46,934 bases of DNA from a bacterium (GCA_040757115.1 JBFLYA010000004.1:1-46934); one strand, 5' to 3'; positions 53 to 37,363 are shown, numbered from the stretch's first letter. Numbers and translations are program-made. Notes: a model not told the origin generated them from the letters alone.

Positions 53-105
53 AATTTTATTATACTAAACATTTTATCTGCTGTCAAGTTATATTTGAAT
101 TTTTG

Positions 106-2505
106 TTACTGAAGTGCCATTAAACTGCTTCTTGCGGGTTGATAAGTTGGGTCTATGGAAAGCACCTTTTGAAAGGCAGAAATTGCCTCAACTCTATTTC
201 CTGATTGTGAATAAGCCACACCCAAATTATAAATGGCGGCAATATTTTGTGGGGATAAGACAATTGCCTTTTGAAAACAAGCCACCGCCTCATTGTGCAT
301 TCCTTTAGAAATATAGGCACTGCCAAGATTTACAAGGATAAAATCACGCTCTGGGTCTAACTCAACCGCTTTTTTATATTCTGAAATTGCCTCATCAACC
401 TTGCCGAGCTTTTGATAGACAAGCCCTAATCCATAATAACCTTTAGCATCTCTTTTATCAATCGCAATTATCTTATTAAATTGTGAAATAGCCTTCTGCG
501 ACTTGCCCAAATCATTATAAACCATACCCAAATTATAATAACTCATCAATCGTTTTGGGTCGGCAAAAAGGGCTTCTTGATATTCGGCAATCGCTTGTGG
601 ATATTTACCCATATCCTTGAAAAACCCGCCACGATTGTTATATGCGGTTGCATAATTAGAGATGTTACTTTCTACCCGCTCTTCTTTATATATCTTTTTG
701 TCAAGTATGCCTCGATACCTGAATCGTAAATCTTCATCAATTGCACTTAACTGTTCTTTTAGAGGTGTCCCCTTTTTAAAGACTCGATGACAGATACTGG
801 TTGGAACCAGGGTGTAATCCCTGGCAATGTCCTCATCATAAGGCAAATAAATAGCTCGATGTTGGTTCTTCTCGAAAATAGCATCAAACCGTGTCTTGAT
901 AATTTGTGCCGCCTCATTAGTTAATCTCTTGACTCTGTTCTGCGGCTTAAATTCAAAATTTAATTCTTTCTTAATCTGATTAGCATACCAATCAAGGTAT
1001 AGCGAGTGCTGGTCAATAAGTGTAATATCTTTGCGGATATTTTCGACATAATGAAGATACCATAATGGAAAGGCAAAGGTATCACCTTTGATGTAAAGGA
1101 TTGATTTTTCTTCTAGAGGAAATAAGATATTCATTCCATAATCATAAGAATAATAATTTTTGCGATGGTCTCCATAATAATGATTACAAGCCCAGGAAAT
1201 AACCGGGATAAGGGAAATAAACAGGGTCAGACCTTGATTGTAGAATGCAGGTAATCTGCATTCTACAATCAAGGTCTGACCCCATTTTACCCCGTAGCCC
1301 ATAAATATACTGAAAATAATATAAGCCGGGATATAATAATCTTCTATGTTGTGAATACCATATCGACTGGAATGAAGGATATCGGCGAGGATGATTAAGG
1401 TCAAGAAAATGAAGATTTTTAGCCTTTGTTTATATAAGAAAAACAATCCGATAAATCCAATCCAGATAAGATATGGAGTAAACTGCTGGATGAAAAATAC
1501 AGGATGTTGGACAAATATCCGTTTAAGCAAGGTTGGAAGTGAGGTAGCGAAATAAGTGCCATATTCCTTAGCCGTGATGTGGTCCAGGAATCTTTCAAGA
1601 TTATCCGGACAACCCCAGTTGATAATTGGATGAGCAGAGGCTCGAATAGGCAGATAGGCATATAAAATAATAATTGGCAGGAAAAACAAAATAGCCATTT
1701 TAAGTAGAGAGTTAAGACTTAAGAGTTTAGGGTTTGGACGCCAAATTATGATGATAAGAAATATCGCCGCAGGAACTAAAAATATCGTTTGGAGATGGTG
1801 GGTGAAAGATAGACCAAGGATGAAAGAGAATAGGTAGAGATAGTTTTGAGTTTTGAGTTTTGAGTTTTGAGTTTTTTCTCCGTGCTTCGTGCTCATTGCT
1901 TCAGCCCACTTTAGGATGATGAAAATCAGGAGTGTTGCAAACAAGGCATTTAGTGTATATTTTTCAGCAATGACTGCCTGTTGCCAGAATACCCGTGCAA
2001 AACAAAGCATCAATGCCGCAACTACAGCAGGTAAAATAGGTGAGAAGTGAGAAGTAAAAAGTAAGAACTTACCATCTTGTTTCCTACTTCCTACTTCCCA
2101 TTTCCTACTTCCCACTTTTAATGTGATAAAATAGACCATCATTACCGCTAAACTCGCTGATGTAGCAGAAAATAAATTATAGCGATAGGCAATATTCCCA
2201 AGTGGGATAAAACTAAAAAGCTTACCTAATAAACAATATAGTGGATAACCAGGTGGGTGAGGAATACCAAGGACAAAAGAGGCACTGATCATATCACCAG
2301 AATCATGCAGGTCAATGCTCGGGGTTAAGGTATGAAGATAGACAAAAAAGGCAAAGAAAAAGACACCAATGCCTATCAAGTAGTCATAGAGCGTAAAAAC
2401 TCCTGGTGTGATTTCTTCAGTCTCTGGCTTTATAAAATTTAAAAATTTATTCTGCTTAGCATGAATTGGTGTTTTTGTTTTCTTGTCTTTCTTTTTCTTT
2501 CCCAT
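106..2505 (-). CDS. DUF2723 / TMEM260-like GT-C membrane glycosyltransferase with C-terminal TPR repeats
   Basis: DSGD...LGIPHPPGYPLY motif, many TM helices, GDT-FPLWY motif and several TPRs. ATG at 2505 is preferred because the TTG at 2544 is part of the -35 box. Confidence 0.88.
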   Translation of the reverse strand: MGKKKKDKKTKTPIHAKQNKFLNFIKPETEEITPGVFTLYDYLIGIGVFFFAFFVYLHTLTPSIDLHDSGDMISASFVLGIPHPPGYPLYCLLGKLFSFIPLGNIAYRYNLFSATSASLAVMMVYFITLKVGSRKWEVGSRKQDGKFLLFTSHFSPILPAVVAALMLCFARVFWQQAVIAEKYTLNALFATLLIFIILKWAEAMSTKHGEKTQNSKLKTQNYLYLFSFILGLSFTHHLQTIFLVPAAIFLIIIIWRPNPKLLSLNSLLKMAILFFLPIIILYAYLPIRASAHPIINWGCPDNLERFLDHITAKEYGTYFATSLPTLLKRIFVQHPVFFIQQFTPYLIWIGFIGLFFLYKQRLKIFIFLTLIILADILHSSRYGIHNIEDYYIPAYIIFSIFMGYGVKWGQTLIVECRLPAFYNQGLTLFISLIPVISWACNHYYGDHRKNYYSYDYGMNILFPLEEKSILYIKGDTFAFPLWYLHYVENIRKDITLIDQHSLYLDWYANQIKKELNFEFKPQNRVKRLTNEAAQIIKTRFDAIFEKNQHRAIYLPYDEDIARDYTLVPTSICHRVFKKGTPLKEQLSAIDEDLRFRYRGILDKKIYKEERVESNISNYATAYNNRGGFFKDMGKYPQAIAEYQEALFADPKRLMSYYNLGMVYNDLGKSQKAISQFNKIIAIDKRDAKGYYGLGLVYQKLGKVDEAISEYKKAVELDPERDFILVNLGSAYISKGMHNEAVACFQKAIVLSPQNIAAIYNLGVAYSQSGNRVEAISAFQKVLSIDPTYQPARSSLMALQ
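1224..1282. repeat. Perfect 27-bp inverted repeat (REP-like) inside the CDS
   Basis: GGGTCAGACCTTGATTGTAGAATGCAG, 5-nt loop GTAAT, CTGCATTCTACAATCAAGGTCTGACCC. Confidence 0.9.
1842..1875. repeat. Heptamer tandem repeat (AGTTTTG)n in the CDS
   Basis: Four full units plus a partial unit; encodes KTQNSKLKTQN. Confidence 0.85.
2040..2115. repeat. Imperfect hairpin of heptamer repeats in the CDS
   Basis: GTGAGAA-like units face CCTACTT-like units; encodes VGSRKWEVGSRKQDGKFLLFTSHFS. Confidence 0.7.
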
Positions 2506-2515
2506 CTTAATTAGT

Positions 2516-2544: not shown

Positions 2545-2709
2545 ACTTTTTATCTCTACAATGGAGTTAAATTCTAATTGAAATTGGCTCTTCTATCAGT
2601 TTAACAGTGCTTTCTGTAAAGCGATAATAAATCTGTGGACTACTTCAGAATCAAATTTACTACTAAAGAAAAAAAGGAAGACTTTTTTCGTAGAGAAGAG
2701 ATGATAACC

Positions 2710-2757
2710 TAACTATATGTGAATCATATAGTTACAGAATTTGGCTTATGCTCTGCT
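2710..2757 (+). promoter_or_regulatory. Candidate sigma54 promoter with an upstream IHF-like palindrome
   Basis: TTGGCTTATGCTCTGCT (GG-N10-GC) at 2741-2757, preceded by TAACTATATG-N5-CATATAGTTA at 2710-2734. Confidence 0.5.
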
Positions 2758-2789
2758 ATAGTTTTTTTAAAAAAATTAAAAACTTTTAG

Positions 2790-2818
2790 TTGACACATTC
2801 AAGGCTATATGATAAAAT
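2790..2818 (+). promoter_or_regulatory. sigma70-type promoter
   Basis: TTGACA-N17-TAAAAT. Confidence 0.65.
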
Positions 2819-3192
2819 AAAAATTTAAAGACTCACACCATAGTAAGCTTTAACAATAGAAGGTAAATATGGGTAGTCAATTATTCTATCTTTCTTTCCA
2901 TCCTTGCAAAATAATCGTTTTGGATACAGTTCAATAAATTGCTTATTTGTTGTAAGAAAATAGTTAGTATGATTTTTGCTACTTTTAATTTTTAGAAGAG
3001 AGATAATATACCTGTAAAAAATAGATTAAGGAAGCGTAGTGAGAAGTAGAATGAGGGATTTTACTCTATGTGGGGAAGAAAGATAAGTGTTTAATAAGTG
3101 AATATGTCTAAATAAGAGACATTGTATCCTGTTATCCTGCTCAAGAAAAGATGAAAAGGTGCCGATAAATATATTAAGGAATAAATAAGATA

Positions 3193-3675
3193 ATGAATAA
3201 TAAGGGGTTCCCATTTAATATTGTGTGTGACAAATTAGATAGTTTTTTACCAGGAAGAGACCTTTCTGATATTGAGTCAGCTATTGAAAAAATCCGAAAA
3301 GAAAGAAATCTTCCAGTTTCTGTTTTTGCCTCTGAGGCTCTCCTAAATGGATTAGTCGAGCATAAGAGCCCATATCAACTCACGGAGGAAGCACATCAGT
3401 TAATAAGAGACTTCAAAGGGAAATTTACTCCTGAGTTCATTGAGAATCAGATTATGCATAGTCTAAGAGGGAAGTTCCCTCTTCTATATCACAAACTTCT
3501 TTCCAAAATGATGTCTACTTTTTGGACACTTATCGATGAAAAAGTTTTTATAAAAGAAACTATTGAGGAAAAAGCATCTGAGAAACTAATTAGACCTGCC
3601 ACCTTCCTATTCCTCCTGGTCATTTACGGAGTGATAAAAGCAACTGAGGAGCGATTTATTGTTTGGGTAAAATAA
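3193..3675 (+). CDS. Hypothetical, probably helical protein
   Basis: 160-aa ORF closely followed by the next gene; no motif recognised. Confidence 0.65.
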   Translation: MNNKGFPFNIVCDKLDSFLPGRDLSDIESAIEKIRKERNLPVSVFASEALLNGLVEHKSPYQLTEEAHQLIRDFKGKFTPEFIENQIMHSLRGKFPLLYHKLLSKMMSTFWTLIDEKVFIKETIEEKASEKLIRPATFLFLLVIYGVIKATEERFIVWVK

Positions 3676-3722
3676 GTCTGCCGTATCGACAAACCAGGAT
3701 TGAAAAGAATAAAGGGAAAAAT

Positions 3723-4622
3723 ATGGAAGACCTAAATGAATGGAGTATTAGACTCCTTTTTTCAGTATTTAAAAATGGAATGAGTAATACAGTTAGTGCA
3801 GTTCTAGAAAAAATAGAATCAGCATTTAGATTAGATGAAAACGATGATAAAGATAAAATTTCAATGATAGAAAAAGAACCGGATAACTTTAAAAATGAAC
3901 TATTGAATCGCCTAACGAGGTATAAAACAATAGCAATAAGATCTCCTATTCCAATTATTCCATTAGTGAAATATGCAACTGAGGTTATAGAAGAAGTAGA
4001 AAAGAAAGAAAGGATGGATGTGAGAGAATTTTTAAATTTTATGAGCGATAAGTGTGCCTCCTTAAGGCAAGATATGGAGACGAAAAGGAAGAACGCTATT
4101 GAATGGGCAGGAAGTCTGGTAGAAAGAGGAGTAGTATTTCTGAGTGGAGAAGAAAGTGATTTCCCAACGAAAATTATAGAAAAATCAAGAAAAAGTTGGC
4201 ATAGCACACGAATTATATTTCCTATTCATCGAGAAGGAGAAGACTCTATTCCCTTTAAATTGAAAGGCGAGCGATATGAGGAAGAGTATGAACCAAAAAG
4301 AGAAATAGATTCTGATATAGACAGACTTAATGAAATTATTATCGCACCTATAGTTAAACATGTTATTACAGAGGCTTATATAGGGAGTAAAGAAGGAGGT
4401 GTACTCTGTATCTATGGTATGAAGAAGATAGCATCTATGATAAATGAAAGGGAAATTCCTTTCTATATTTTAGAGGATTCTTTTTCTAATGATTACCGTG
4501 AAGATATTTTAAAGAATATGGTTGAAGAATTTCCTGTAATGAGAAAATTTTGTGATTTTCTTCCTTCAGAATACATTACGGGAATAATTAATGAGAATGG
4601 CATTAAAACTCTGAGATTTTAA
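3723..4622 (+). CDS. Divergent eIF-2B alpha/beta/delta (IF-2B / MtnA / R15P isomerase) superfamily protein
   Basis: C-terminal CDFLPSEYITGIINENG resembles FDxTPxxLITxIITExG. VITEAYIGSKEGGVLCIYG...EIPFYIL resembles VxVGADxxxxxGxxxNKxG...xVPFYV. Helical N-terminal domain. Alternative start is TTG 3663. Confidence 0.62.
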   Translation: MEDLNEWSIRLLFSVFKNGMSNTVSAVLEKIESAFRLDENDDKDKISMIEKEPDNFKNELLNRLTRYKTIAIRSPIPIIPLVKYATEVIEEVEKKERMDVREFLNFMSDKCASLRQDMETKRKNAIEWAGSLVERGVVFLSGEESDFPTKIIEKSRKSWHSTRIIFPIHREGEDSIPFKLKGERYEEEYEPKREIDSDIDRLNEIIIAPIVKHVITEAYIGSKEGGVLCIYGMKKIASMINEREIPFYILEDSFSNDYREDILKNMVEEFPVMRKFCDFLPSEYITGIINENGIKTLRF

Positions 4623-4688
4623 AAGAGAAACAAGAAAAACTCATTTACCCAGCTTATAAATTTTTCCTCTTCCCACCTGGTAAAATAA

Positions 4689-5795
4689 TTAGTATAGATT
4701 TCTTCTCTCGTAATAATATTGTCCACCAATCAATTGTTTTAATTCTTCAGGTCTTGGTGAGTATTTCAAAGCATCTTCATAAGTAATTAATTTATTATCA
4801 TAAAGTTCTTGTATCGACATATTCATTGTTTGCATCTTATGTTCTTTTCCTGTCTGCATACAAGTATAGATTTGTGGAAGTTTTTTGGGGTCTTCATCAC
4901 GAATTAGACTTCGGACCGCTTCTGTAGCAGATAGAACTTCGCAGGCTAATATTCTTCCCGTGCCAGAGATATGAGGTAATAATTGCTGTGAAATTACAGC
5001 CTTTAGTACAAAGGATAATTGAGTCCTTACCTGCCTTTGCTCATTTTTAGGAAATACATCAATGATACGGTTGATTGACTGGACAGCATCCGAAGTATGT
5101 AGAGTAGAAAAGACTAAGTGTCCTGTCTCAGCTATATTCAGAGTAACTCTGATAGTTTCTAAGTCACGCATCTCTCCTACCAGGACTATATCAGGGTCTT
5201 GTCGCAGTACATACTTTAGAGCATTAGTAAAAGATTTAGTATCAGCAACTATCTCCCGCTGGTGGACAATGGATTCCTTGGACCGATGAAAAAATTCTAT
5301 TGGGTCTTCAACAGTTATAATATGTTCTTTACGATTAGTATTTATATAATCAATCATAGAAGCTAATGTAGTTGTTTTTCCTGTACCAGTAGGACCTGTT
5401 ACCAAAACCAATCCAGGAGATTTAGGAGGTAGGTTTACTATGTCATTTACAATAGAAGGAAGGCGTAATCTTTCAAAATTGGGTACCTCATCTGGAATAC
5501 TTCGTAACGCAGCACATACTGTCCCTTTCTGACGAAATACATTCATCCTTATTCTAGCTGTATCTTTGACTCCAAATGATAAATCTAATTCATTATTCTC
5601 TTCAAATTTCATCTTCTGATCATCATTTAAAATAGAGTAGATAACTTGCTGAGCTCTTTCTGCACTGATTTTCTCTTCCTTCTCTACAGGAGTTAGAACA
5701 CCATCAATTCGTAGCATTGGTGGTTTTTCTATCCCAATATGTATATCAGAAGCTCCTCTATCTTTCATTAGTTGCACTAAGTGAACAATATCCAT
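4689..5795 (-). CDS. pilT: Type IV pilus retraction ATPase PilT
   Basis: GASDIHI, Walker A GPTGTGKTT, TVEDPIE Asp box, LRQDPD-VGEMRD, ETGHLVFSTLH His box and AVRSLIRD (AIRNLIRE-like). Confidence 0.93.
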   Translation of the reverse strand: MDIVHLVQLMKDRGASDIHIGIEKPPMLRIDGVLTPVEKEEKISAERAQQVIYSILNDDQKMKFEENNELDLSFGVKDTARIRMNVFRQKGTVCAALRSIPDEVPNFERLRLPSIVNDIVNLPPKSPGLVLVTGPTGTGKTTTLASMIDYINTNRKEHIITVEDPIEFFHRSKESIVHQREIVADTKSFTNALKYVLRQDPDIVLVGEMRDLETIRVTLNIAETGHLVFSTLHTSDAVQSINRIIDVFPKNEQRQVRTQLSFVLKAVISQQLLPHISGTGRILACEVLSATEAVRSLIRDEDPKKLPQIYTCMQTGKEHKMQTMNMSIQELYDNKLITYEDALKYSPRPEELKQLIGGQYYYERRNLY

Positions 5796-5831
5796 CTTAG
5801 AAAACCTCCTTCTATGTGAAATATAAAACTT

Positions 5832-6746
5832 TTAAAATAATCTCCTTTTTCCAATCTTACCAAGAATTTCTTTTATTGTCTCCCGGATATTATCAGGAGA
5901 ACCTAAGAAAACCTTAACTTGACAACCTGTTATAGTCTCAATGAGTTCAAGACTTTGGGAATCATTAGGGTCAGCTGTAACTACTGTAAGTTGATTATCT
6001 ATTTTGGCAATAGGTATTAAGCAACAGACTCTAAGAATTTCTTCAGGGATCTTCTGGACAACTTCGGTGTCAATTGTCTCTGGAATTAAGTAGATGTAAG
6101 GGACATTAAGTTGCTTACTTAATGTCCAATTTATAGACCCTTCCTCAACCCTATTATTAATTAACGCCTCTTCCAAACTTATTTTCTTTTCCTCTTGTTC
6201 TTTCAACGCATTTTCTAACTGTTTTTCTGTAATTAATCCTTCTGGAATGGCGTACTTCTTCACGCCTTCTAACAATGCCATCTCAGTTTCTAAAGACCTT
6301 CTATATTCTTTCTTCACCTCAGGAATTTCTTCCTTTGGTCTACCTAATAGTCTTTCAAGTATTAGGTTTTTATGTTCCAGAGCCTTTTCCACTTCTGAAT
6401 ATAAAATATCATTAGCACTTTCTCTCGTTTTATCAATATACTGCCAGATGCCAAATTCCATTGCTTTACGAACATTCTCTAATGAGCCATAGGCGGTTAA
6501 GACAATTATCTGTGTAAATGAGTCTTTGAGTCTAACCACTCTTACTACTTCTAATCCTCCTTCTTCATCTTCTTCCCTCAATTTCATATCAACTACCGCG
6601 ACATCAAAAGCAGGACTTTTTTCAATAATATCAATTGCCTCCTCCTTGTTATCTACTCCCTCTATTTCATACCCTTTTTCTTTACTCTTTTCAACTATTT
6701 CTTTTAATGTAGTTAATTCATCATCAACTATCAAGATTCTCGCCAT
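5832..6746 (-). CDS. Response regulator: REC fused to an MshEN / GspE-N (T2SSE N-terminal) domain, with no ATPase
   Basis: REC motifs ILIVDDE...DMKL...LTAYG...YIDK. C-terminal GLITEKQLENALKEQ...LSKQLNVPYI...IP...LTVVTADP resembles the PilB/GspE N-terminus. RBS AGGAGGA before ATG 6746. Confidence 0.85.
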   Translation of the reverse strand: MARILIVDDELTTLKEIVEKSKEKGYEIEGVDNKEEAIDIIEKSPAFDVAVVDMKLREEDEEGGLEVVRVVRLKDSFTQIIVLTAYGSLENVRKAMEFGIWQYIDKTRESANDILYSEVEKALEHKNLILERLLGRPKEEIPEVKKEYRRSLETEMALLEGVKKYAIPEGLITEKQLENALKEQEEKKISLEEALINNRVEEGSINWTLSKQLNVPYIYLIPETIDTEVVQKIPEEILRVCCLIPIAKIDNQLTVVTADPNDSQSLELIETITGCQVKVFLGSPDNIRETIKEILGKIGKRRLF

Positions 6747-6780
6747 TAATTTTTCCTCCTTTATTATTTCGGATAACTTT

Positions 6781-7797
6781 TTATTTAAAAACCTCATCTT
6801 CTAAGAGGTCTACTATTCGTGGGTCATGACATCCAAAGTATTTGGAGTCTGGATTATTTTTATCACCTTTAATCATGGATAATGCATCCTGTTTAGTTTT
6901 TGCCTCGTGATATGGCCGCTTTGAAGTTAAAGCATCAAATGCATCAGCAACAGCAATTATCCTTGCCTCTATAGAAATATTATCTCCTGTGACTTTACCA
7001 GGATACGGTCTTGGTCGTCTGTCTTGAATCCCTTCTGGAGGGTTATACCATTCATGATGTTCTCGCACTATATGAGCTATGGGTGGAAGTTCAGAAGGGG
7101 TATTTAGAATACGAAAACCTTCCTCAGGATGTACCTCTATCATTCCCCAGTCTGCGTTAGATAAGCCTATTGGTTTATGAAGTACACTTTGATTTATACC
7201 AATCTTACCAATATCATGGACCGCTGAAGCTATTTCGAGTTTGTCAATATCAACTTTCTCTTCTGGATAAGTCTTATTCCATTTTATCCCAATTTTTTTT
7301 GAATAGTTTACTACGCGTTGAGAATGGCCATGGAGATATGGGTCACTTGAATCAATAGCTACCTTTAAACATTCAATAAACCCTTTTTTAAAAGTTACTT
7401 GCTCTCTCTGTATTCCTACATAGGTTAATGCCTTTTCTACCTCAACATCCAAAGTTTGATTTGCATCATCCATATTTCTATTAATATAACCCCATAATCG
7501 TAATAATTTCATAGCCTCACAAACTTTTTCATAATCTCCGTGGGCAGTTAGAACTATTATCTCAGTCAATGTATCTTTTTCCCTAACCGCTTTTGCTACT
7601 TCCATGCCACCCTTCTCATCTCCCTCCCTCAATTTCATATCAACTACCACAACATCAAAAGCAGGACTTTTTTTAATAATATCAATTGCCTCCTCCTTGT
7701 TATCTACTCCCTCTATCTCATACCCTTTTTCTTTAAACCTCTCAACAATCTCTTTTAATGCAGTTAGGTTATCATCAACTATTAGTATCTTAGACAT
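6781..7797 (-). CDS. REC + HD-GYP response regulator (cyclic dinucleotide phosphodiesterase-like)
   Basis: HGHSQRV, HDIGK, HP, HHE and ARIIAVADAFDALTSKRPY motifs. Confidence 0.9.
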   Translation of the reverse strand: MSKILIVDDNLTALKEIVERFKEKGYEIEGVDNKEEAIDIIKKSPAFDVVVVDMKLREGDEKGGMEVAKAVREKDTLTEIIVLTAHGDYEKVCEAMKLLRLWGYINRNMDDANQTLDVEVEKALTYVGIQREQVTFKKGFIECLKVAIDSSDPYLHGHSQRVVNYSKKIGIKWNKTYPEEKVDIDKLEIASAVHDIGKIGINQSVLHKPIGLSNADWGMIEVHPEEGFRILNTPSELPPIAHIVREHHEWYNPPEGIQDRRPRPYPGKVTGDNISIEARIIAVADAFDALTSKRPYHEAKTKQDALSMIKGDKNNPDSKYFGCHDPRIVDLLEDEVFK

Positions 7798-10700
7798 TAA
7801 TCTCTCCTCCTTTTCTCTGCCTCACAGGCAGAAAGATTACAAATCTTGCTCCCTTACCAAAAATTCCTTCTTCCTTTATAATTCCTTTATGATGATTGAT
7901 AATAAGCTCTATGATAGAAAGTCCCAAACCAGTGCCATTTTTCCTTGTAGTGACTAAAGGCTCAAATATCCTTGATTTATCTTTTTCTGCCACACCTATA
8001 CCTGTATCAATAAATTCTATCATAATGTAGTCCTCTGCTTTTAAATTATAAGAATTACTTTCATTAGAAGGAATAAATTTGGTATTAATTTTGAGTTCTC
8101 TTTTCCCATCCTTCAAGTCTATTTTTGATAATAAAGTATTAAAATAATCTGGTGCCATATCCAGCATAAATTGGTCTTTTATCATCCTTCGTAATTCTTC
8201 TTCCTCTTTTTGCTCCATCTTTTGTTCCCTGATGAATCTTTTTATATTCATAAAATATTTAGCATTTTGAGCTAATTCTGAAAATGCATCCTTTAGTTTT
8301 TCTGAGTCTCCTTCTATAGAATCTAACTTCTCATCAAAATTGAAACTTATTTCTATCTGTTCATTTTCAGGAGAAGGGAATATAGCACTAACTGCTTTAT
8401 TCAAAATAGAATTTACATTTACTGAGCTAATTCTTATCTCTAAAGGCTTTGCAAACTCAGTAATTTCTCGCACAATTCTCCTTGCAGATTCAATTTCCTC
8501 TTTCATATCTTTTATCTTATTTTGAATTTCATTAAGATTATTCTTTGATGAGATTGACTTTCGTAGTTCCTCTAATGCATAAATCTTATTCCCTATCTTA
8601 TGAGCAACTCTTGCGGCAAGGTCTCGCCATTCAAAGAGTTTCCTTGCTATAAAACTTTCCCGAGTTTCGTCTAATTTTCTATTTGTCTCTCCAAGTTGAA
8701 GTTGTATCTTTTCAAATGTCTGAAGATGTAAAATAGGACTTGTTATAGGGTTTATTATTCCATTCAGAAATTCCCTATCTTCCTCAGTAAACTCATTACC
8801 TTCCTGAAATCTATTTAAGCCAATTACTCCCCACAGGTTTCCATTATCCATAATAGGAAAACCGAGATAGAATTTTTTTGGTATTACTAATTGCTGTTGT
8901 GCTGTTTCTCCTATATCCCCTTCACCAATGTTACACTTATTCTTTACTATATAATATTTATCGTAAGGTATTACATCAGATGGTGTCTTAATCTTCTCCA
9001 AAAATAATATATCGTCTTTTTTATCATAAAGATATATAGTACAAACTGCTTTGAAATAATCAGCAAGGGTAGTAGATATATCTTCCAAAAGGTCAACAAG
9101 GTTATAAGATTTTATCATTATGTTATTGAATACCTTCAACATCCTTTCTCTTTCCAACTTTTGAATAGCAATAGATATTTGACTACTGAGTATTTCTAAT
9201 GCTTGCCTATCAAGGTCAGTAATAGAATTGTTTGGATAACTATACTTTTTATCTGCTAACATTATTCCTTTTACCCTACCTGTGATAATTAAAGGGATAA
9301 TGATAAAGTCATCTGAGCTTAACTCTCCTAAGAGATTTTTCACTGCTGCAATTATATTCTCATCTATATTCCTAATATGAAGTGATTCTTTTTTAGAAAT
9401 ACATTTCTCTCTTAGCACATATGGACAGTTTTTAAGAGGAATTTCTATCTTTTTAAGTTCCTTTGTTATCTTTGTTTCTATTGGGTAATTTTTAATGCTG
9501 TTCTCCATAGAGACTCCCATTGAAATTGTCTCCTCCCATTCTTCCTCATTAATTGGTCCAATTCCTTTCTCCCCTATTAACTTTTCCTCCTTTATAAGAA
9601 AAATCATTGCTCTATTAAATCCTAATCCTTCACTATGAGTAACACCGGTTAAAAAAATATGGAGTAATTCATTCAAGTCTCTTGCATTATGTAAGTATGT
9701 AATTATGTTCTGAATTATCTTTATTTTTTCATCCCACCGAGATGCTGTGATTTTTAATTCATAGAGTTGCAAATTTAATTCATAGAGTTGCAAATTATTA
9801 AGGATACCTCCTATATGGTTACATAATTCAAGAAGAATTTCTAACTCTTCTTCAGTATAATAAGGTTCTTCTATCTTCTTCTTTAATCCTAATATCCCCA
9901 ATAACTCATCTCCATATACTATAGGCACAAATAATTCCATTTCCATCTTTTCAAGGTTTTCTTTAAAATTCTCCCATCTCTTTTTTCCGATCAACCATTT
10001 TTTAAAGGCTGGCCATCTTTCTAATCTTTCTTTTAATATCACCTTCTTCTCTTTTTTAAGCCATTCAACAATAATCTCATTTAGTCCAAATATCTCTTCC
10101 TTTACCAAAGTATCTACCCCAATACTCCAATTTACTTTATACCTACTTTCCCCCTCTTCTAATAACAGTATAACAATCTTATCCAGAGGCACTACCTGTT
10201 TAATGGTGTTTTCAATTATAACAAATAAGGCTTGTTTATTATTTACAGAAAGGGTTTTACTCTTAAAGGCTTCAATTATTTGTTCTAACTCATACCTTCG
10301 ATAGAATACCCATTTATCAATGAATCTTTTTACCTTCTCATTTTCAAGTAGTTGAAAGGCAATTGTTATTAAAATAGCAGAAACAAAAACAAGGATTATT
10401 CCCCATCCTGGAGGAATGAGGAATAATCTTCCGATGCCAATTACAAAAAAAATAATTAAAAAGGATAATAAAAGATAAATACTACCCTTTCTAACTACGA
10501 TTTCCATTAATCTATATTTAAAGATGGCATAACCGACCATCAAAGGGAAAAAGACAGCCATTAAATGTTCTATTATTAAAGCAGGGAGTTTAAAGATATA
10601 TACTAACAAAACATTAACTATCCCTCCTATCATAGCTACAACTACTCCAACACTTAATAATATTAATTTTCTCTTCTCCGCTCGTTTTTGTGTTAAAAAA

Positions 10701-11236
10701 CCTTTTCTGACCATTAATACAGTCCCATAGGCTGGAAAAATAAAAAAAACTATAAGAAAGAGGATAAGGATATATAGTGGGGCACTTACTTGGGGATAAT
10801 AGTATTCAGAAGAAGGAAAATGAACAAGGTCTACATTTATATACATTAGTCCAAGAATTGCTAAAACAACGCTGAAAATATATCCTGCTCTTGATGCCCA
10901 GCGATGAATACCTTTATAATTATTTGTAATAATTAATATAAAATGAAAAAAGGTAGAGTAGATAAATGGTATAGCTATTTTAGGGAGTGCCAAATAAAAA
11001 GTTTTGGGAAATCCAAAAGATAGAATTGCTAAAAAAGGATTAAATTCTTCTTTAGTTTCAATAAGAGAGACTCCTGCATATTCCAATCCCCAGATGCCTA
11101 AACAAAGCCCTAATCCTGCAAATACCCAATTTATAACTCTTTTAGGATTTTGAACCCACACAAAAATAGCTAATCCAAAATTGATGAAAGCGGTAAGGAA
11201 ATAAAAATTAGCGTAATGAATATTTTGTATATCCAA
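7790..11236 (-). CDS. Membrane sensor histidine kinase (multi-TM N-terminus, about three GAF domains, HisKA-HATPase)
   Basis: About nine TM segments, GAF-like blocks (GLGFNRAMIFL), H-box AARVAHKIGN, DTGIG, IFEPLVTT and GTGLGL. Confidence 0.9.
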   Translation of the reverse strand: MDIQNIHYANFYFLTAFINFGLAIFVWVQNPKRVINWVFAGLGLCLGIWGLEYAGVSLIETKEEFNPFLAILSFGFPKTFYLALPKIAIPFIYSTFFHFILIITNNYKGIHRWASRAGYIFSVVLAILGLMYINVDLVHFPSSEYYYPQVSAPLYILILFLIVFFIFPAYGTVLMVRKGFLTQKRAEKRKLILLSVGVVVAMIGGIVNVLLVYIFKLPALIIEHLMAVFFPLMVGYAIFKYRLMEIVVRKGSIYLLLSFLIIFFVIGIGRLFLIPPGWGIILVFVSAILITIAFQLLENEKVKRFIDKWVFYRRYELEQIIEAFKSKTLSVNNKQALFVIIENTIKQVVPLDKIVILLLEEGESRYKVNWSIGVDTLVKEEIFGLNEIIVEWLKKEKKVILKERLERWPAFKKWLIGKKRWENFKENLEKMEMELFVPIVYGDELLGILGLKKKIEEPYYTEEELEILLELCNHIGGILNNLQLYELNLQLYELKITASRWDEKIKIIQNIITYLHNARDLNELLHIFLTGVTHSEGLGFNRAMIFLIKEEKLIGEKGIGPINEEEWEETISMGVSMENSIKNYPIETKITKELKKIEIPLKNCPYVLREKCISKKESLHIRNIDENIIAAVKNLLGELSSDDFIIIPLIITGRVKGIMLADKKYSYPNNSITDLDRQALEILSSQISIAIQKLERERMLKVFNNIMIKSYNLVDLLEDISTTLADYFKAVCTIYLYDKKDDILFLEKIKTPSDVIPYDKYYIVKNKCNIGEGDIGETAQQQLVIPKKFYLGFPIMDNGNLWGVIGLNRFQEGNEFTEEDREFLNGIINPITSPILHLQTFEKIQLQLGETNRKLDETRESFIARKLFEWRDLAARVAHKIGNKIYALEELRKSISSKNNLNEIQNKIKDMKEEIESARRIVREITEFAKPLEIRISSVNVNSILNKAVSAIFPSPENEQIEISFNFDEKLDSIEGDSEKLKDAFSELAQNAKYFMNIKRFIREQKMEQKEEEELRRMIKDQFMLDMAPDYFNTLLSKIDLKDGKRELKINTKFIPSNESNSYNLKAEDYIMIEFIDTGIGVAEKDKSRIFEPLVTTRKNGTGLGLSIIELIINHHKGIIKEEGIFGKGARFVIFLPVRQRKGGEINV

Positions 11237-11253
11237 ATTATAGTCCCCTAAAT

Positions 11254-11413
11254 TTAACTATATGATGATGCATCAAAAGAGGTTATTCTACCTCCCCCAG
11301 ACCTACCTTCCAGAATTCCTTCCCCAAAGGTTTCTTTACCAATACCAATAGGTGAAATTATTCCTCTTCCCGTAATTACTACACGACGCTTTTTTATCAG
11401 TTTCTTCTATCAT
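11254..11413 (-). pseudogene. N-terminal fragment of a beta-ketoacyl-ACP synthase (FabF-like)
   Basis: Minus strand reads KKRRVVITGRGIISPIGIGKETFGEGILEGRSGGGRITSFDAS followed by a stop. The ATG at 11413 is out of frame by one A in an A run. Confidence 0.75.
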
Positions 11414-11601
11414 TGAAGTTCACTTATAAATTTACTAATGCTTGATATAATAGTTGACTATTCCTTTCTGCAATCTTTTTTATTTTAAGTGTATAAAAGC
11501 ATTTGGGGTTTTAAAATAAAAATAGCAGGTTAAATTTATAATGTCCTATCATAATTACATATAATTTAATTTGCCTCAAAAACTACATTTACAATATCAT
11601 A

Positions 11602-11678
11602 ATTATAAAACATATTATAAAAAAGTCAAGAAAAATTATAAAAAAATTGTTGCATAAATTGAAATTATGTTGTAAAAT
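11602..11678. promoter_or_regulatory. Divergent sigma70-type promoters
   Basis: Minus strand TTGACT-N16-TATAAT (11602-11629); plus strand TTGCAT-N17-TAAAAT (11650-11678). Confidence 0.5.
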
Positions 11679-11713
11679 ATAAAAGTTGATATTTGATGAT
11701 AGAGGAGATAAAT

Positions 11714-12361
11714 ATGGATAGGTTAGATAGAATAGAAAAAATATTGAATGAAACTACCAAAGGCTTAAAACTATTAAAAGATAGACAATTAAAGACCGAT
11801 GAGCAATTAAAAAAGACCGATGAGCAATTAAAAAAGACCGATGAGCAACAGAGAAAGACCGATGAAGAATTGCGAAAGACCGATGAACAGCAAAGAAAGA
11901 CTAATGAAGAAATATCTCGTGTATCCAGAGAAATCGGTGGAGGATTAGGGAGAATGGCGGAAGGATTAACCGCACCTTCTATCCCTAAGTTATTCGCAGA
12001 ATTAGGCATAAAAGTAAAACATGTCTTTCAAAGGGTAAGAACTATTGAGGATGGCAAATGTATTGGTGAAATAGATTTGGTCTGTCCCGCGAGAAGAAAT
12101 GGGAAAGAAGTAGTATTACTTGGAGAGGTAAAGGCACATCTTACCTCAACCGATATAAAAGACTTTTTGCCTTCTATTGAGCATTTCAAAGAATACTTTC
12201 CTGAATATAAAGAAGCAGAAATTATCACTTTGGTCTCGGGTATGTATGTGGCTGAAGAGGCAAAAAGATTTGCTTATAAAAAGGGGTGTTATATCCTTGC
12301 TCCAGCAGAGGATACAATGCAAATTCTAAATCCTAAGGATTTTAAACCAAAAGTATATTAA
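11714..12361 (+). CDS. Coiled-coil repeat protein with a C-terminal PD-(D/E)XK-like domain (DUF3782-like)
   Basis: KTDEQLK heptads, then G...E...GEIDLV...GEVK. RBS GAGGAG before ATG 11714. Confidence 0.8.
   Translation: MDRLDRIEKILNETTKGLKLLKDRQLKTDEQLKKTDEQLKKTDEQQRKTDEELRKTDEQQRKTNEEISRVSREIGGGLGRMAEGLTAPSIPKLFAELGIKVKHVFQRVRTIEDGKCIGEIDLVCPARRNGKEVVLLGEVKAHLTSTDIKDFLPSIEHFKEYFPEYKEAEIITLVSGMYVAEEAKRFAYKKGCYILAPAEDTMQILNPKDFKPKVY
11791..11916 (+). repeat. In-frame 21-bp tandem repeat, about six units
   Basis: AAAGACCGATGAGCAATTAAA-type units. Confidence 0.9.
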
Positions 12362-16968: not shown

Positions 16969-17236
16969 AGAATTTCATTTCAAATTTTTGGAGTCCTCAA
17001 TTCCTGAAGCTGTCAGGAACAGGTTTATTGAAGATTGTGTGCTTTGTCAGTATCACAGAAACGAAGATCAAGCGAAGCGTCTAAATCTGGGACTCCGTTA
17101 AAAAAAAGGAACTTATTTTTGCAAAAACTATAATGCGGGAACGAGCAGAACAACTTTTAAATTCCTATACATAAGAATAAATTCCCCATTTTTCCATTAT
17201 TTCCCCTTTTCCCTTCATTACACTCTGAACGGTTAC
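16906..17236. mobile_element. GTAA-ended MITE-like element without a matching TSD
   Basis: GTAAGCGTTCAG...CTGAACGGTTAC; flanks CCTCAAAA and GACACCAG differ. Confidence 0.75.
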
Positions 17237-17665
17237 GACACCAGCACTTGACCACTCATATTCCCACGCTGATTCTACCATCTTTACCCTGACTGGATTT
17301 AATTCTACATACCTCACCGCTGATAAAAGATGCTGCCCATCCATCGGAAATGAGGCAAAACGCCCCTGCCATAAATATCCTCGCCACCCTTCGCGCAAGT
17401 TTATCATCCGGCTGTAGCGACGATGTGTCTCTCCTATGCCTCGAGCAAAACTTTCTTCTATCTTCGGTACCGCAATCAAATGAACATGATTCGGCATCAA
17501 ACAATACGCCCAAATCTCTATACCACTTCGATTGCACCATTCTCCCCGCAATTCAATATAATATTCATAATCTTCTCGATAAAAGAAAACCTGTTGCCCC
17601 CGATTACCTCGCTGGGTAATGTGATGTGGTACCCCTAAAACAGCAACTCTTGCTATCCGTGCCAT
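17237..17665 (-). pseudogene. REP-associated tyrosine transposase (RAYT, Y1 HUH), 3'-truncated by the MITE
   Basis: MARIAR...HHITQRGN, CLMPNHVHLI, WQGRF, YVELNPVR and WSSA, after which the frame enters the MITE end. Confidence 0.85.
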
Positions 17666-17891
17666 AAAAATATTATACCAAAATAACACATTACTGGCAA
17701 CTTAAAATTTAGTATTGTGTCCCCGGAATTGTCGTTTATTTTTGAAAGAACTTGTAAAAGCATTCAATATCTGGTGAAAACTTGCCGATAAATATAATAG
17801 GTTCATCTCTTCTCCTCCCATTATAGATTTAAATTCTTTCTTATTATCTTTAATCGGCTGGAGAAGAGATTTTTTTAGCTCTTTCTGAAAA

Positions 17892-25379: not shown

Positions 25380-25907
25380 TTAGTCGGGAGCATTCTTTAT
25401 AATCTCCTGTTTTGTTTCTGTATAGATAACATTCTCTCTCCAGTTCCTTTCTGTCCGTAATTTCTCGATCAGTTCTAACACATCATCATAGTTTAACAAA
25501 CTTAACAAGAACAAGGTAATGAGGAAGAATGTGCTATAATAGGTAAGAATTTTATCCCCAATACGCTTAATTGCCTTCAGGTCATCTGTAATTAGAGGAA
25601 GTTCTTTATCTCTTGCCAAATTATAGCACTCATTATCTACTGGGTCTAAGTACCGGATATTTTCTTTCAATCTTACCTCTTCTATAATAAAATTTTCTTG
25701 ATAAGTAAGAATTTTTTTAGCTATCCTGCCTAATCTATCCTCATACCTTGTAAAATCTTCCAATTCTCCTATTACACCTTTAGGGACTACAATTTCAGCA
25801 ATAGAAAGGACTGGCTCAATCATCTCTATTAACCCTAAGGAGATTAAAGCTGATGTATCAATGATAAACCTATCTTTTGTGAATTTGCTTTTTGAGTTTT
25901 TCTGCAT
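25380..25907 (-). CDS. PIN-domain (VapC-like) toxin
   Basis: FIIDTSALI, V..EL, D...LA and LITDD acidic PIN pattern. Confidence 0.8.
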   Translation of the reverse strand: MQKNSKSKFTKDRFIIDTSALISLGLIEMIEPVLSIAEIVVPKGVIGELEDFTRYEDRLGRIAKKILTYQENFIIEEVRLKENIRYLDPVDNECYNLARDKELPLITDDLKAIKRIGDKILTYYSTFFLITLFLLSLLNYDDVLELIEKLRTERNWRENVIYTETKQEIIKNAPD

Positions 25908-26190
25908 ATCTAATTCCACCTTTAACACTCCTTTTTGCAATTGTCTTTAAATCTTCTACCTCTTTGACAAACTCATCTCCTAACAGGCTCTGTAGACCAT
26001 CTTTTGTAATAATTCCTTTGAGGTAAAGATTACACACCTCCGAGAGTAATCTATCTTTTTCATAGTGAATTAAATTAGTTAACGCTGTAGTTGTCCATCT
26101 ATCAGGAGTCGAATCATTCAGTTTAGAGATAATAGTTATATCTCTTAATATCTCCTTTGGAACTTTAATTTCTAATTCTGTTACTTCCAT
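25870..26190 (-). CDS. Putative antitoxin of the PIN toxin
   Basis: Small ORF overlapping the PIN gene start; RBS GGAGGTG before ATG 26190; LYLKGIIT motif. Confidence 0.65.
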   Translation of the reverse strand: MEVTELEIKVPKEILRDITIISKLNDSTPDRWTTTALTNLIHYEKDRLLSEVCNLYLKGIITKDGLQSLLGDEFVKEVEDLKTIAKRSVKGGIRYAEKLKKQIHKR

Positions 26191-26455
26191 TTTGCAACAC
26201 CTCCTTTTCTTCATTGAAATCTCCACTTCCGTATCCTCCAAGTGCTCTGGATATTAATGAGCCAGAAGGAAGATCAAACAATCCTTCAATAGTTTGGGGA
26301 CAGTCTTTAGCTTCAGTATTTCCATGAATAACTAAAATCCCTTTTCCTTCTTCTACTAATACTTCCTGGTGAGACAAAAAGCCACATTTTTCATAGATCA
26401 CCTCAGGAATGTGCACCTTTTGTCCCTCTCCTTTTTCCAGAATTAATCTCTCCAT
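26165..26455 (-). CDS. Small AbrB/MazE-like protein, copy 2
   Basis: Near-identical to copy 1 up to FDLP, then a different tail. Confidence 0.5.
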   Translation of the reverse strand: MERLILEKGEGQKVHIPEVIYEKCGFLSHQEVLVEEGKGILVIHGNTEAKDCPQTIEGLFDLPSGSLISRALGGYGSGDFNEEKEVLQNGSNRIRN

Positions 26456-36375: not shown

Positions 36376-36655
36376 GAGTAAAAAATCTTCGCACAAAAAC
36401 TCTTTGTAATAATCCAATTTTTTATCCCTCCAAAATTTTTTAAAAAAATATTTGTATTTTTACACTTTTTATGGTATAATCATAATATATACTATTATGA
36501 TTTATTAGACTTCTGCAAAATGAGAATTTTTGCTTTATTTGTCATTCATGCGTTCTTTATGTCATTCCTGCGGAAGCAGGAATCCAGAGGTACAAAGAAT
36601 GGATTCCCCCTGATTAAGCCTATTCTCCCTGAATTTAGCTTCACATATATTATCA

Positions 36656-37363
36656 ATGTAAAGGAAATAAAGAAGGATTGGGTAGAAGAATATAAGATAG
36701 AGCCTGTATTAATAGAGACATTTGTAGATAGAGAGCGATTTAGTGGAGTTTGTTATCGAGCGGCTAATTTTGAATATATTGGTGAGACAAAGGGGCGTGG
36801 TAGGCAAGATTGTAAACATGAGCATAAGGTGTCAGTGAAAGGGATATATCTTTATGCATTATGTAAGGATTTTCAAAGGTTGTTATGTGGAGGGCAGGTA
36901 TTAGAGAGAGAAGAGGCGAGTGTGTCTGAAGATTGGGCAGAGGAGGAATTTAGGAAGGCACGATTAAGAGATTTGAGATTGAAGAAGCGGTTGATGAAGA
37001 TAGCGAGGGATTTTTATGCCAATCCCCAGGGGAATATACCCCTTAACAAAACTGGGGCGTGAAGTTCCGGATGTGTCCTGTAGCGTATTTTTCGAGGAGG
37101 CAGAATGAAAGGTATTAGTTGCATATAAGACCCAAAATCCACATCCACCAGTAACTCCACCGAGTTTAAGAGAAGCGGTTCGGATGGTAGCAAGTTTGGG
37201 AGGGTTTTTAGGGCGTAAAAGTGATGGTGAACCTGGAACAAAAACACTATGGTTTGGTCTTCAACGTCTTGATGATATCACTGCTATATGGAAAATTTGT
37301 AATCTGATATGTACTTCTATTCCACCTTAGTTTTGTCCAGCAAAAGATGTGGGTAAAGATCAG
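36656..37363 (+). mobile_element. Internally deleted IS4-family (Tn5-like, DUF4338-fused) element
   Basis: PVLIETFVD...YRAANF..IGETKGRGR, then DWAEEEF...D.RL.KRL, then LGGFLGRKSDGEPG..TLW.GLQRL. Terminal sequence ATGTGGGTAAAGATCAG. Confidence 0.82.

Follow-up and report, generated by a model that had tools for sequence, protein, structure and literature searches.

The P0002 gene and its predicted fold

The stretch of bacterial DNA analysed here, called the window throughout, is 46,934 nucleotides (nt) long (GCA_040757115.1 JBFLYA010000004.1:1-46934). It belongs to a genome (G000) of an uncultured phylum, of which 25 genomes were sampled. The window is AT-rich (GC 0.31-0.40), and no tRNA was found in it. 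The gene in question is an intact open reading frame (ORF) on the + strand, which runs from an ATG at 3723 to a TAA at 4622 and has 299 codons. Its product, P0002 (299 amino acids, aa), was annotated from the ORF, a family profile, a structure model and residue mapping as a predicted IF-2B-fold protein without catalytic residues. Upstream lies a small ORF on the same strand, and downstream a signalling operon on the other strand. A Shine-Dalgarno-like word, AAGGG, is located 6-7 nt 5' of the ATG. The ATG start is supported because close and distant relatives share the initial motif M-x-x-L-x-x-W. An alternative TTG start at 3663 would give a longer protein and overlap the upstream gene. The antisense ORF opposite the gene (3656-4207) is of low complexity.

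The original prediction, made from the sequence of the window, had read P0002 as a degenerate protein of IF-2B-type fold. Against PF01008, P0002 alone reached 15.3 bits (E 0.012), below the cut-off of 22.4, and matched with residues 268-294 only. The curated NCBIfam models of MtnA and ribose-1,5-bisphosphate (R15P) isomerase reached no more than 14 bits (cut-off 521) and 13.1 bits (cut-off 185.85). A phmmer search of P0002 against the PDB returned chance matches only (E >= 1.8). BLASTP against the MtnA of its own genome gave an E value of 0.003, with 26 % identity across the last 63 residues.

An exhaustive phmmer search over 1.84 billion representatives found five proteins at E <= 0.001, the query counted, and a word-indexed set of 5.8 billion proteins added two close copies of P0002. 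The family has seven members: the query P0002, P0003 and P0004 with 82 % and 80 % identity to it, and P0005-P0008 with 28-36 %. A family profile search of the 5.8-billion-protein set gave nothing new besides P0007. A metagenome scan with the family alignment yielded 21 loci, all of canonical IF-2B/MtnA type (41-61 bits against the family profile), and no new member. The PF01008 cut-off that P0002 alone did not reach was passed by four of the seven members (26.7, 53.4, 60.7 and 63.3 bits), two of which cover profile positions 28/29-280 of 280.

The alignment of the seven members (A2) was then compared with A4, an alignment of 20 canonical IF-2B proteins taken partly from the same phylum and partly from metagenomes. 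The profile-profile comparison (hhalign) gave a probability of 99.2 % and an E value of 1.1e-19 over 242 columns, at family positions 54-296. With the A2 profile, a search of the PDB gave 40 distinct sequences at E <= 0.01, each of them named eIF-2B/IF-2B, R15P isomerase (R15Pi) or MtnA; the best was 1vb5_A (E 2.4e-16).

An AlphaFold model of P0002 from a 27-row alignment reached a mean predicted local distance difference test score (pLDDT) of 78.1 and a predicted template-modelling score (pTM) of 0.79. The pLDDT fell below 50 only at residues 169-177 and 182-195, in a lineage-specific acidic insert. The model has the two domains of the IF-2B fold, an N-terminal helical and a C-terminal Rossmann-like domain. 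Foldseek found 126 PDB matches of the model at E <= 0.001, which belong to the IF-2B family throughout among the matches listed, and the best was eIF2B-alpha (7kma_C, E 8.3e-10). With VIA-align, the 45 best entries (Z 14.3-17.8, model residues 1-299) were all eIF2B alpha, beta or delta, R15Pi or MtnA. The next entry dropped to Z 9.6, where CoA-transferase and RpiA chains aligned with the C-terminal domain only. In a language-model atlas, the clusters nearest P0002 carry PF01008 (scores 0.90, 0.90 and 0.89), which is a lead only.

In a maximum-likelihood tree of the same 27 rows, the seven members formed one clade with support of 100/100 on a stem of 1.58, and within it the window clade stood on an additional stem of 1.56. 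Long-branch effects are possible in this tree, and the position of the family with respect to the e2b2-like and MtnA groups is uncertain. Taken together, the profiles and the predicted model identify P0002 as a fast-evolving but real member of the IF-2B superfamily. By sequence it appears nearest to the eIF2B-alpha/R15P-isomerase type, which is without the MtnA-specific loop. The fold proposed in the original prediction was thus borne out by the profile-profile match, the PDB profile search, Foldseek and VIA-align, and none of the Foldseek matches listed for the AlphaFold model lay outside the IF-2B family.

Active site and ligand pocket

The residues of P0002 were mapped by aligning the HMMER family profile with the PDB chains 5yfs/5yft and by a MAFFT alignment (A5). 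According to the part of PMC5789824 available, the catalytic residues of the Pyrococcus horikoshii R15P isomerase are C135 and D204. The same part gives R22, R65, Q166 and K215 as ligands of the 1-phosphate, S137 and K240 as ligands of the 5-phosphate, and D204, N214 and K215 as ligands of the sugar.

The results showed that C135 corresponds to E143 of P0002 (hhalign shifts it by one column, to G142) and D204 to Y219. At the other positions, R65 is replaced by P75, Q166 by K181, K138 by D146, N214 by C229, K215 by I230 and K240 by S255, and S137 is matched by S145. R22 corresponds to N18, a column inferred solely from the R-G-A-P column of A5. One of the nine ligand or catalytic side chains of R15Pi is therefore retained, namely S145. 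At the level of motifs, E217-A218-Y219 aligns with the canonical G-A-D and C229-I230-Y231-G232 with N-K-I-G. In both the MAFFT and the HMMER (5yfs/5yft) alignments, the residues opposite T-H-C are S141-G142-E143, and neither Cys nor His occurs there. The same three departures (EAY for GAD, CIYG for NKxG and no Cys at THC) had been read directly from the sequence earlier, and the alignments confirmed them. The eight-residue MtnA loop G-A-L-A-T-G-G-I is also absent from P0002. The same genome encodes an MtnA on contig C416 (302.5 bits for PF01008 and 452.9 bits for TIGR00512), in which T-H-C, E-T-R-P, G-A-D, N-K-I-G-T-Y and G-A-L-A-T-G-G-I are all intact.

In eIF2B-alpha, the 5-phosphate and sugar residues are described as retained and C135 as changed to Ala or Gly (PMC5789824, in the part available). 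The pocket of human eIF2B-alpha consists of G196, A129, Y130, E198, N208, R132 and K234, as listed in the accessible part of PMC8187479. With a register offset of 6, confirmed from the profile ranges, these map to E217, E143, E144, Y219, C229, D146 and S255 of P0002, and none of the seven is retained. In place of the two basic phosphate ligands of eIF2B-alpha stand D146 and S255. The sequence of the loop is S-G-E-E-S-D.

Across the family, the Asp column holds Y, Y, Y, H, H, F and H, with Asp in none of the seven members. The 5-phosphate Ser column is kept in six of the seven. P0005-P0007 have a Lys at the K240 column, and so do P0006 and P0008 at the K138 column; compared with the window clade, the distant members therefore appear less degenerate. 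Only L81, C111, G225, A237, P271, P281, I285, I288 and G293 are invariant in all seven members, and they match none of the nine R15Pi or seven eIF2B-alpha columns. The C-terminal motifs are identical in the three close copies. Judged from the alignments and the model, both domains of the fold are still present in P0002, whereas the catalytic Cys and Asp are gone, as are nearly all side chains that bind sugar and phosphate. In this sense of sequence, the earlier description of a pseudo-enzyme proved apt. Because these side chains are lost, isomerisation of methylthioribose-1-phosphate or R15P by P0002 is very unlikely, and so is sensing of sugar phosphates in the manner of eIF2B-alpha.

P0002 might still be an enzyme for another substrate if its catalytic residues had migrated, with E143/E144 as base together with Y219 or C229. 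Such migration can occur, as noted in the available part of a pseudoenzyme review (PMC10211241). The acidic residues at the Cys column and at the next one, and Tyr or His at the Asp column, would suit this idea, and the relative P0007 has a Cys one column off. However, the substrate-binding residues are gone as well, and we regard a migrated active site as highly improbable because no candidate residue is conserved over the seven members.

By analogy with eIF2B-alpha, the interdomain pocket could instead bind a metabolite or nucleotide and signal to the neighbouring histidine kinase, cyclic di-GMP (c-di-GMP) and PilT module. The cleft between the domains is kept in the predicted fold, the 5-phosphate Ser and the Lys residues of the distant members persist as described above, and the neighbouring genes include HD-GYP-type and MshEN domains. 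Against this stand the complete loss of the eIF2B-alpha pocket residues in P0002, the acidic S-G-E-E-S-D loop, which should repel phosphate, and pocket columns that are not conserved within the family. We therefore consider a sensing role rather unlikely. The ligand-sensing version suggested in the original prediction found no support for P0002, whose phosphate ligands have become D146 and S255; a sugar-phosphate sensor would suit the distant family members better.

The cassette, the signalling operon and the island

The P0002 gene belongs to a two-gene cassette, in which it follows an ORF for a 160-aa protein of no recognised family (3193-3675, +). Full-length IF-2B-like family members were found in five of the 25 genomes (G000, G008, G010, G011 and G018); the remaining matches in the 25 genomes were canonical MtnA or one e2b2-like protein. 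In all five, a partner homologue of 154-161 aa lies directly upstream of the IF-2B-like gene in the same orientation. The partners share 28-32 % identity across lineages, and in G008 (L027) the two genes overlap by an ATGA start/stop. The partner profile picked out the same five genomes at E <= 1e-60, with one extra weak match (E 0.007) that contains a stop, and a search of the 5.8-billion-protein set returned only the same five proteins. No match to Pfam (none of five members), NCBIfam or PADLOC was obtained for the partner, and atlas features and a structure search gave only unnamed clusters (template-modelling score <= 0.41). Its C-terminal segment is hydrophobic (Kyte-Doolittle 19-residue mean 1.35-2.16), and this predicted helix may serve as a membrane anchor. 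A defence-system reading of the locus was also tried and rejected, with no PADLOC match for five proteins.

On the opposite strand, the P0002 gene converges tail to tail, at a distance of 66 nt, with the gene of a PilT/PilU-family ATPase (4689-5795, -; PF00437 157.8 bits; TIGR01420 456.4 bits, cut-off 319.1). The gap between the two genes folds no better than its shuffles (z +1.78). The same (-) strand carries a response regulator with receiver (REC) and MshEN domains (5832-6797; PF00072 58.6 bits, PF05157 51.2 bits) and a second response regulator with receiver and HD-GYP-type (HD_5) domains (6781-7797; PF13487 84.5 bits, PF00072 58.1 bits). Beyond them lies a histidine kinase of 1148 aa (7790-11236, -), for which Pfam gave three GAF stretches and HATPase_c behind a hydrophobic N-terminus. 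HD-GYP domains degrade c-di-GMP and MshEN domains bind it. Against a model of the MshE-related c-di-GMP-binding motif, the REC-MshEN gene scored 29.3 bits, under the cut-off of 38. With 16 T2SSE-type ATPase matches and four PilC-like genes in the genome, the PilT of the locus is one of many paralogues. No pilus structural genes were recognised in the rest of the window.

The five neighbourhoods represent three independent lineages (28-36 % identity). In all four with enough flank, covering the three lineages, the cassette is tail to tail with a histidine kinase/response regulator cluster. The fifth, in G011, is a 2.2-kb contig terminating in the PilT gene. The G010 neighbourhood is as in the window, minus the REC-HD_5 gene. 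In G018, the cluster consists of a PocR-GAF kinase, a REC protein, a GAF-HD_5 protein, a GAF-GAF protein and a PilT/PilU-family ATPase (322 bits, cut-off 319), and in G008 of a PocR-GAF kinase, a REC protein and a GAF-HD_5 protein, with no ATPase. The kinases of G018 and G008 resemble that of the window only in the GAF region, at ~30 % identity. No salvage or pentose-bisphosphate genes were found in the four neighbourhoods with enough flank. The neighbours of P0002 are signalling genes, the PilT ATPase and a glycosyltransferase-TPR protein, and MtnA is on another contig. An isomerase with intact catalytic residues and homologues in salvage operons, which would have spoken against the original prediction, was thus seen neither in the residues nor in the gene order.

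A 300-nt direct repeat, D1 (6454-6753 and 7505-7804, 79 %), covers the duplicated receiver domains of both response regulators. The REC-HD-GYP gene is absent from G010 and G011, which have a single REC-MshEN gene. This absence is consistent with a deletion or insertion via recombination between the D1 repeats. The original prediction had placed the gene next to a pilus signalling operon and proposed checking its co-occurrence with the kinase and pilT genes. The adjacency holds, but the gene lies on the opposite strand and is co-oriented with the 160-aa ORF. Likewise, the kinase/response regulator/HD_5-type cluster recurs tail to tail, but the ATPase gene is missing in G008 and the REC-HD_5 gene in G010.

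The cassette and the operon form a six-gene island of ~9 kb with genes on both strands (partner, IF-2B-like gene, PilT, two response regulators and kinase), which was delimited by presence/absence comparison to ~2600-11635, with its left end between about 2510 and 2600. In G009, which is without the island, 133 nt separate the flanking GAPDH gene from the flanking TMEM260-like gene. G008, of the same genus as the window genome, also has no island at this site: its contig C385 matches window positions 98-2507 (88.7 %), continues with 88 unmatched bases and then matches 11636-11766 (93.9 %), and its contig C357 starts at window position 11641 and runs into GAPDH at 97.9 % identity. Because G008 and G009 miss it at the same site, ~2600-11635 is a single block, either present or absent as a whole. 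This block, together with the conserved adjacency in three lineages, upholds the previously proposed link between the gene and a signalling island. The ends of the island showed no target-site duplication, tRNA, integrase or flanking repeat.

G010 carries the island at the same site. Its DNA identity to the window is 88-90 % in the island (window 3125-11366) and 74-81 % in the flanks (L026, G010:C77). The synonymous divergence (dS) from G010 is 0.09-0.29 for five island genes, against 1.25 for the flanking GAPDH and 1.49 for the flanking TMEM260-like gene, whose ratios of non-synonymous to synonymous rates (omega) are 0.05 and 0.12. The low dS of the island relative to the flanks therefore places exchange between the genera far later than the split of the genera. 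These sequence comparisons imply a recent exchange of the island, which would have proceeded via recombination in the conserved flanks. G008 has its own cassette, ~30 % identical, at a different locus, and this fits mobility of the whole module.

The flanking TMEM260-like glycosyltransferase with TPR repeats (106-2544, -) is one of a large set of paralogues, with 4-15 matches per genome at E <= 1e-30 in the related genomes G007, G008 and G009. Just outside the other end of the island, a 222-aa ORF (11693-12361, +) contains five 21-nt tandem units (11770-11907) encoding heptads of the K-T-D-E-Q-L type; it has no significant Pfam family and ~94 % DNA identity in G008. Further along the window are an IS200-like Y1 transposase (17165-17689, -) and a 180-aa ORF (36520-37062, +) with weak DruA and transposase DNA-binding matches. 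Between 23470 and 35456 (-) there are 11 same-strand ORFs of 186-660 aa, 10 of which had no Pfam match at E <= 1e-5; the sole match in the run is a PEGA-domain protein. A twelfth ORF of the run, of 123 aa (25870-26241), was outside the Pfam scan. The run adjoins a FadL/TodX-type outer-membrane protein.

Selection, interpretation and known systems

We lean towards the view that P0002 is an IF-2B-fold protein without catalytic residues that works as a non-catalytic binding or scaffold subunit of a cassette tied to the signalling island. Several observations weigh against this view. A structure model built from the three closest sequences was poor (pLDDT 40.9). The better model was computed from seven family and 20 canonical IF-2B rows, and its fold partly rests on the canonical rows; the sequence-profile evidence for IF-2B homology is independent of them. 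The cassette and the signalling operon are on opposite strands, which excludes co-transcription, and their adjacency could reflect shared mobility only. The remaining points concern selection. Omega of the IF-2B-like gene is 0.53 against G010, which indicates weak constraint, and 1.20 against G011. Its differences are spread almost evenly over the codon positions (G010: 29/21/37; G011: 28/25/22). When the changes were placed at random, the frame stayed open in 8-10 % of 2000 placements (P(no stop) = 0.08), and an intact frame therefore says little in favour of constraint. Changes were assigned to branches by the odd one out, and the counts are small: the window branch has 2 synonymous and 19 non-synonymous changes, with ~4 synonymous expected if neutral. 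Selection on P0002 in the window lineage is weak, a point that the original prediction had missed.

These data raise a serious rival, namely that the family formerly had a role but its function is being lost in this lineage, that P0002 and the two copies closest to it drift almost neutrally and that the protein does nothing. The G011 branch, with 9 synonymous and 37 non-synonymous changes (omega about 1), points the same way. The G011 copy (L004, G011:C292, about 1011-1013) carries TAG in place of TGG at codon 7, after which the frame restarts at M20, and the G011 kinase (L049, G011:C133) goes out of frame near codon 616 and has two TAA after that point. These defects may reflect decay of the island or may be errors of a metagenome-assembled genome. 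The window clade has also lost the pocket Lys that the distant members keep at the K240 and K138 columns, and its additional stem in the tree is long. On the other hand, the frame is intact in G000 and G010, and the G010 branch (22 synonymous and 31 non-synonymous changes) has an omega of 0.35. The C-terminal motifs are, as noted, invariant in the three close copies.

Raised omega is shared by all island genes, including the maintained kinase, and may reflect the recent transfer and not decay. Against G010, omega is 0.92 for the kinase, 0.56 for the partner ORF, 0.28 for PilT and 0.26 for REC-MshEN. For the kinase, ~12.8 stops were expected under random placement and none was seen, and the frame stayed open in 0 of 500 trials. 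Its differences against G010 are likewise flat over the codon positions (111/76/85), and pN/pS is 1.8-2.5 across the hydrophobic N-terminal 350 residues. This points to diversifying selection on the kinase, or to strongly relaxed but not absent selection. On balance, we consider loss of function in the window lineage unlikely, though it deserves to be taken seriously.

If P0002 is indeed a binding or scaffolding subunit, it would act without catalysis, probably together with the 160-aa partner, which itself is possibly membrane-anchored. The shared island suggests that it may serve the neighbouring signalling/PilT module. In a bolder version, the dead IF-2B protein and its small partner would be an independent bacterial co-option, a scaffold that tunes a kinase, c-di-GMP (HD-GYP, MshEN) and PilT-motor module and moves with it as one island. 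We hold this version to be doubtful. If true, it would provide a second, independent case of reuse of the IF-2B fold, and a tractable one for asking how such reuse comes about. Its weight is limited by a tiny family (5 of 25 genomes of one uncultured phylum and two metagenome proteins), of which the window copy is maybe under relaxed selection. No description of a bacterial non-catalytic IF-2B protein, or of one tied to HD-GYP/PilT modules, was found in open-access full text and bioRxiv.

Other divergent relatives were seen during the searches. The atlas clusters near P0002 include some of Actinomycetota proteins of 249-262 aa named 'hypothetical protein', with PF01008 on only 11 % or none of their members. 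There may be further divergent, unrecognised bacterial IF-2B-like families, and the phenomenon may be wider than the P0002 family. Separately, three proteins (L010 at G016:C96:321-1232, L034 and L038) have T-H-S-x-S for T-H-C, with G-A-D and N-x-x-G-T-Y intact and without the G-A-L-A-T-G-G-I loop. They score under every NCBIfam cut-off (best ribulose_e2b2, 188 bits against 314) and, by sequence, look like eIF2B-alpha-like or e2b2-like proteins.

Among known systems, MtnA (own genome, G000 C416; PDB 2YVK) belongs to the same superfamily as P0002. The motifs intact in the own-genome MtnA are all missing from P0002, and the two group apart in the tree. The R15P isomerases (PH0208, 5YFJ; TK0185, 3A11) have the fold and domain order of P0002, with profile matches at E about 1e-9 to 4e-10 over residues 38-301. 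The available part of PMC5789824 states that R15P isomerase needs C135 and D204 and binds two phosphates, whereas P0002 has E143 and Y219. The best match of the A2 profile, P. horikoshii PH0440 (PDB 1VB5), is of similar length (276 aa) and tied for the top VIA-align score with the P0002 model (Z 17.8, root-mean-square deviation 3.8, 243 aligned). It is also without the catalytic Cys and has Ser instead (T-H-S). Unlike P0002, with E-A-Y and C-I-Y-G-M-K, it keeps G-A-D and N-K-x-G-T-Y.

Non-catalytic IF-2B members are already known, namely eIF2B alpha, beta and delta and Cys-lacking archaeal proteins such as 1VB5. The classic example of a sugar-phosphate isomerase fold that became a non-catalytic regulator is the regulatory core of eukaryotic eIF2B. 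Human eIF2B-alpha (7KMA/7KMF/3ECS), beta and delta share the two-domain IF-2B fold with P0002, and the regulatory subunits likewise have no catalytic Cys and no eight-residue MtnA loop. The regulatory subunits assemble as alpha2 and (beta-delta)2 with eIF2B gamma/epsilon and act on eIF2, whereas bacteria are not known to have eIF2 or eIF2B-epsilon. Unlike eIF2B-alpha, P0002 is bacterial and has no eIF2/eIF2B partners, and its gene lies beside a two-component/PilT operon together with the gene of the 160-aa protein. A further difference lies in ligand binding: according to the accessible part of PMC8187479, sugar phosphates are bound by eIF2B-alpha, in which the ligands of the sugar and of the 5-phosphate are preserved. 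What the eIF2B regulatory subunits and P0002 would have in common is the use of a metabolic-enzyme fold outside metabolism.

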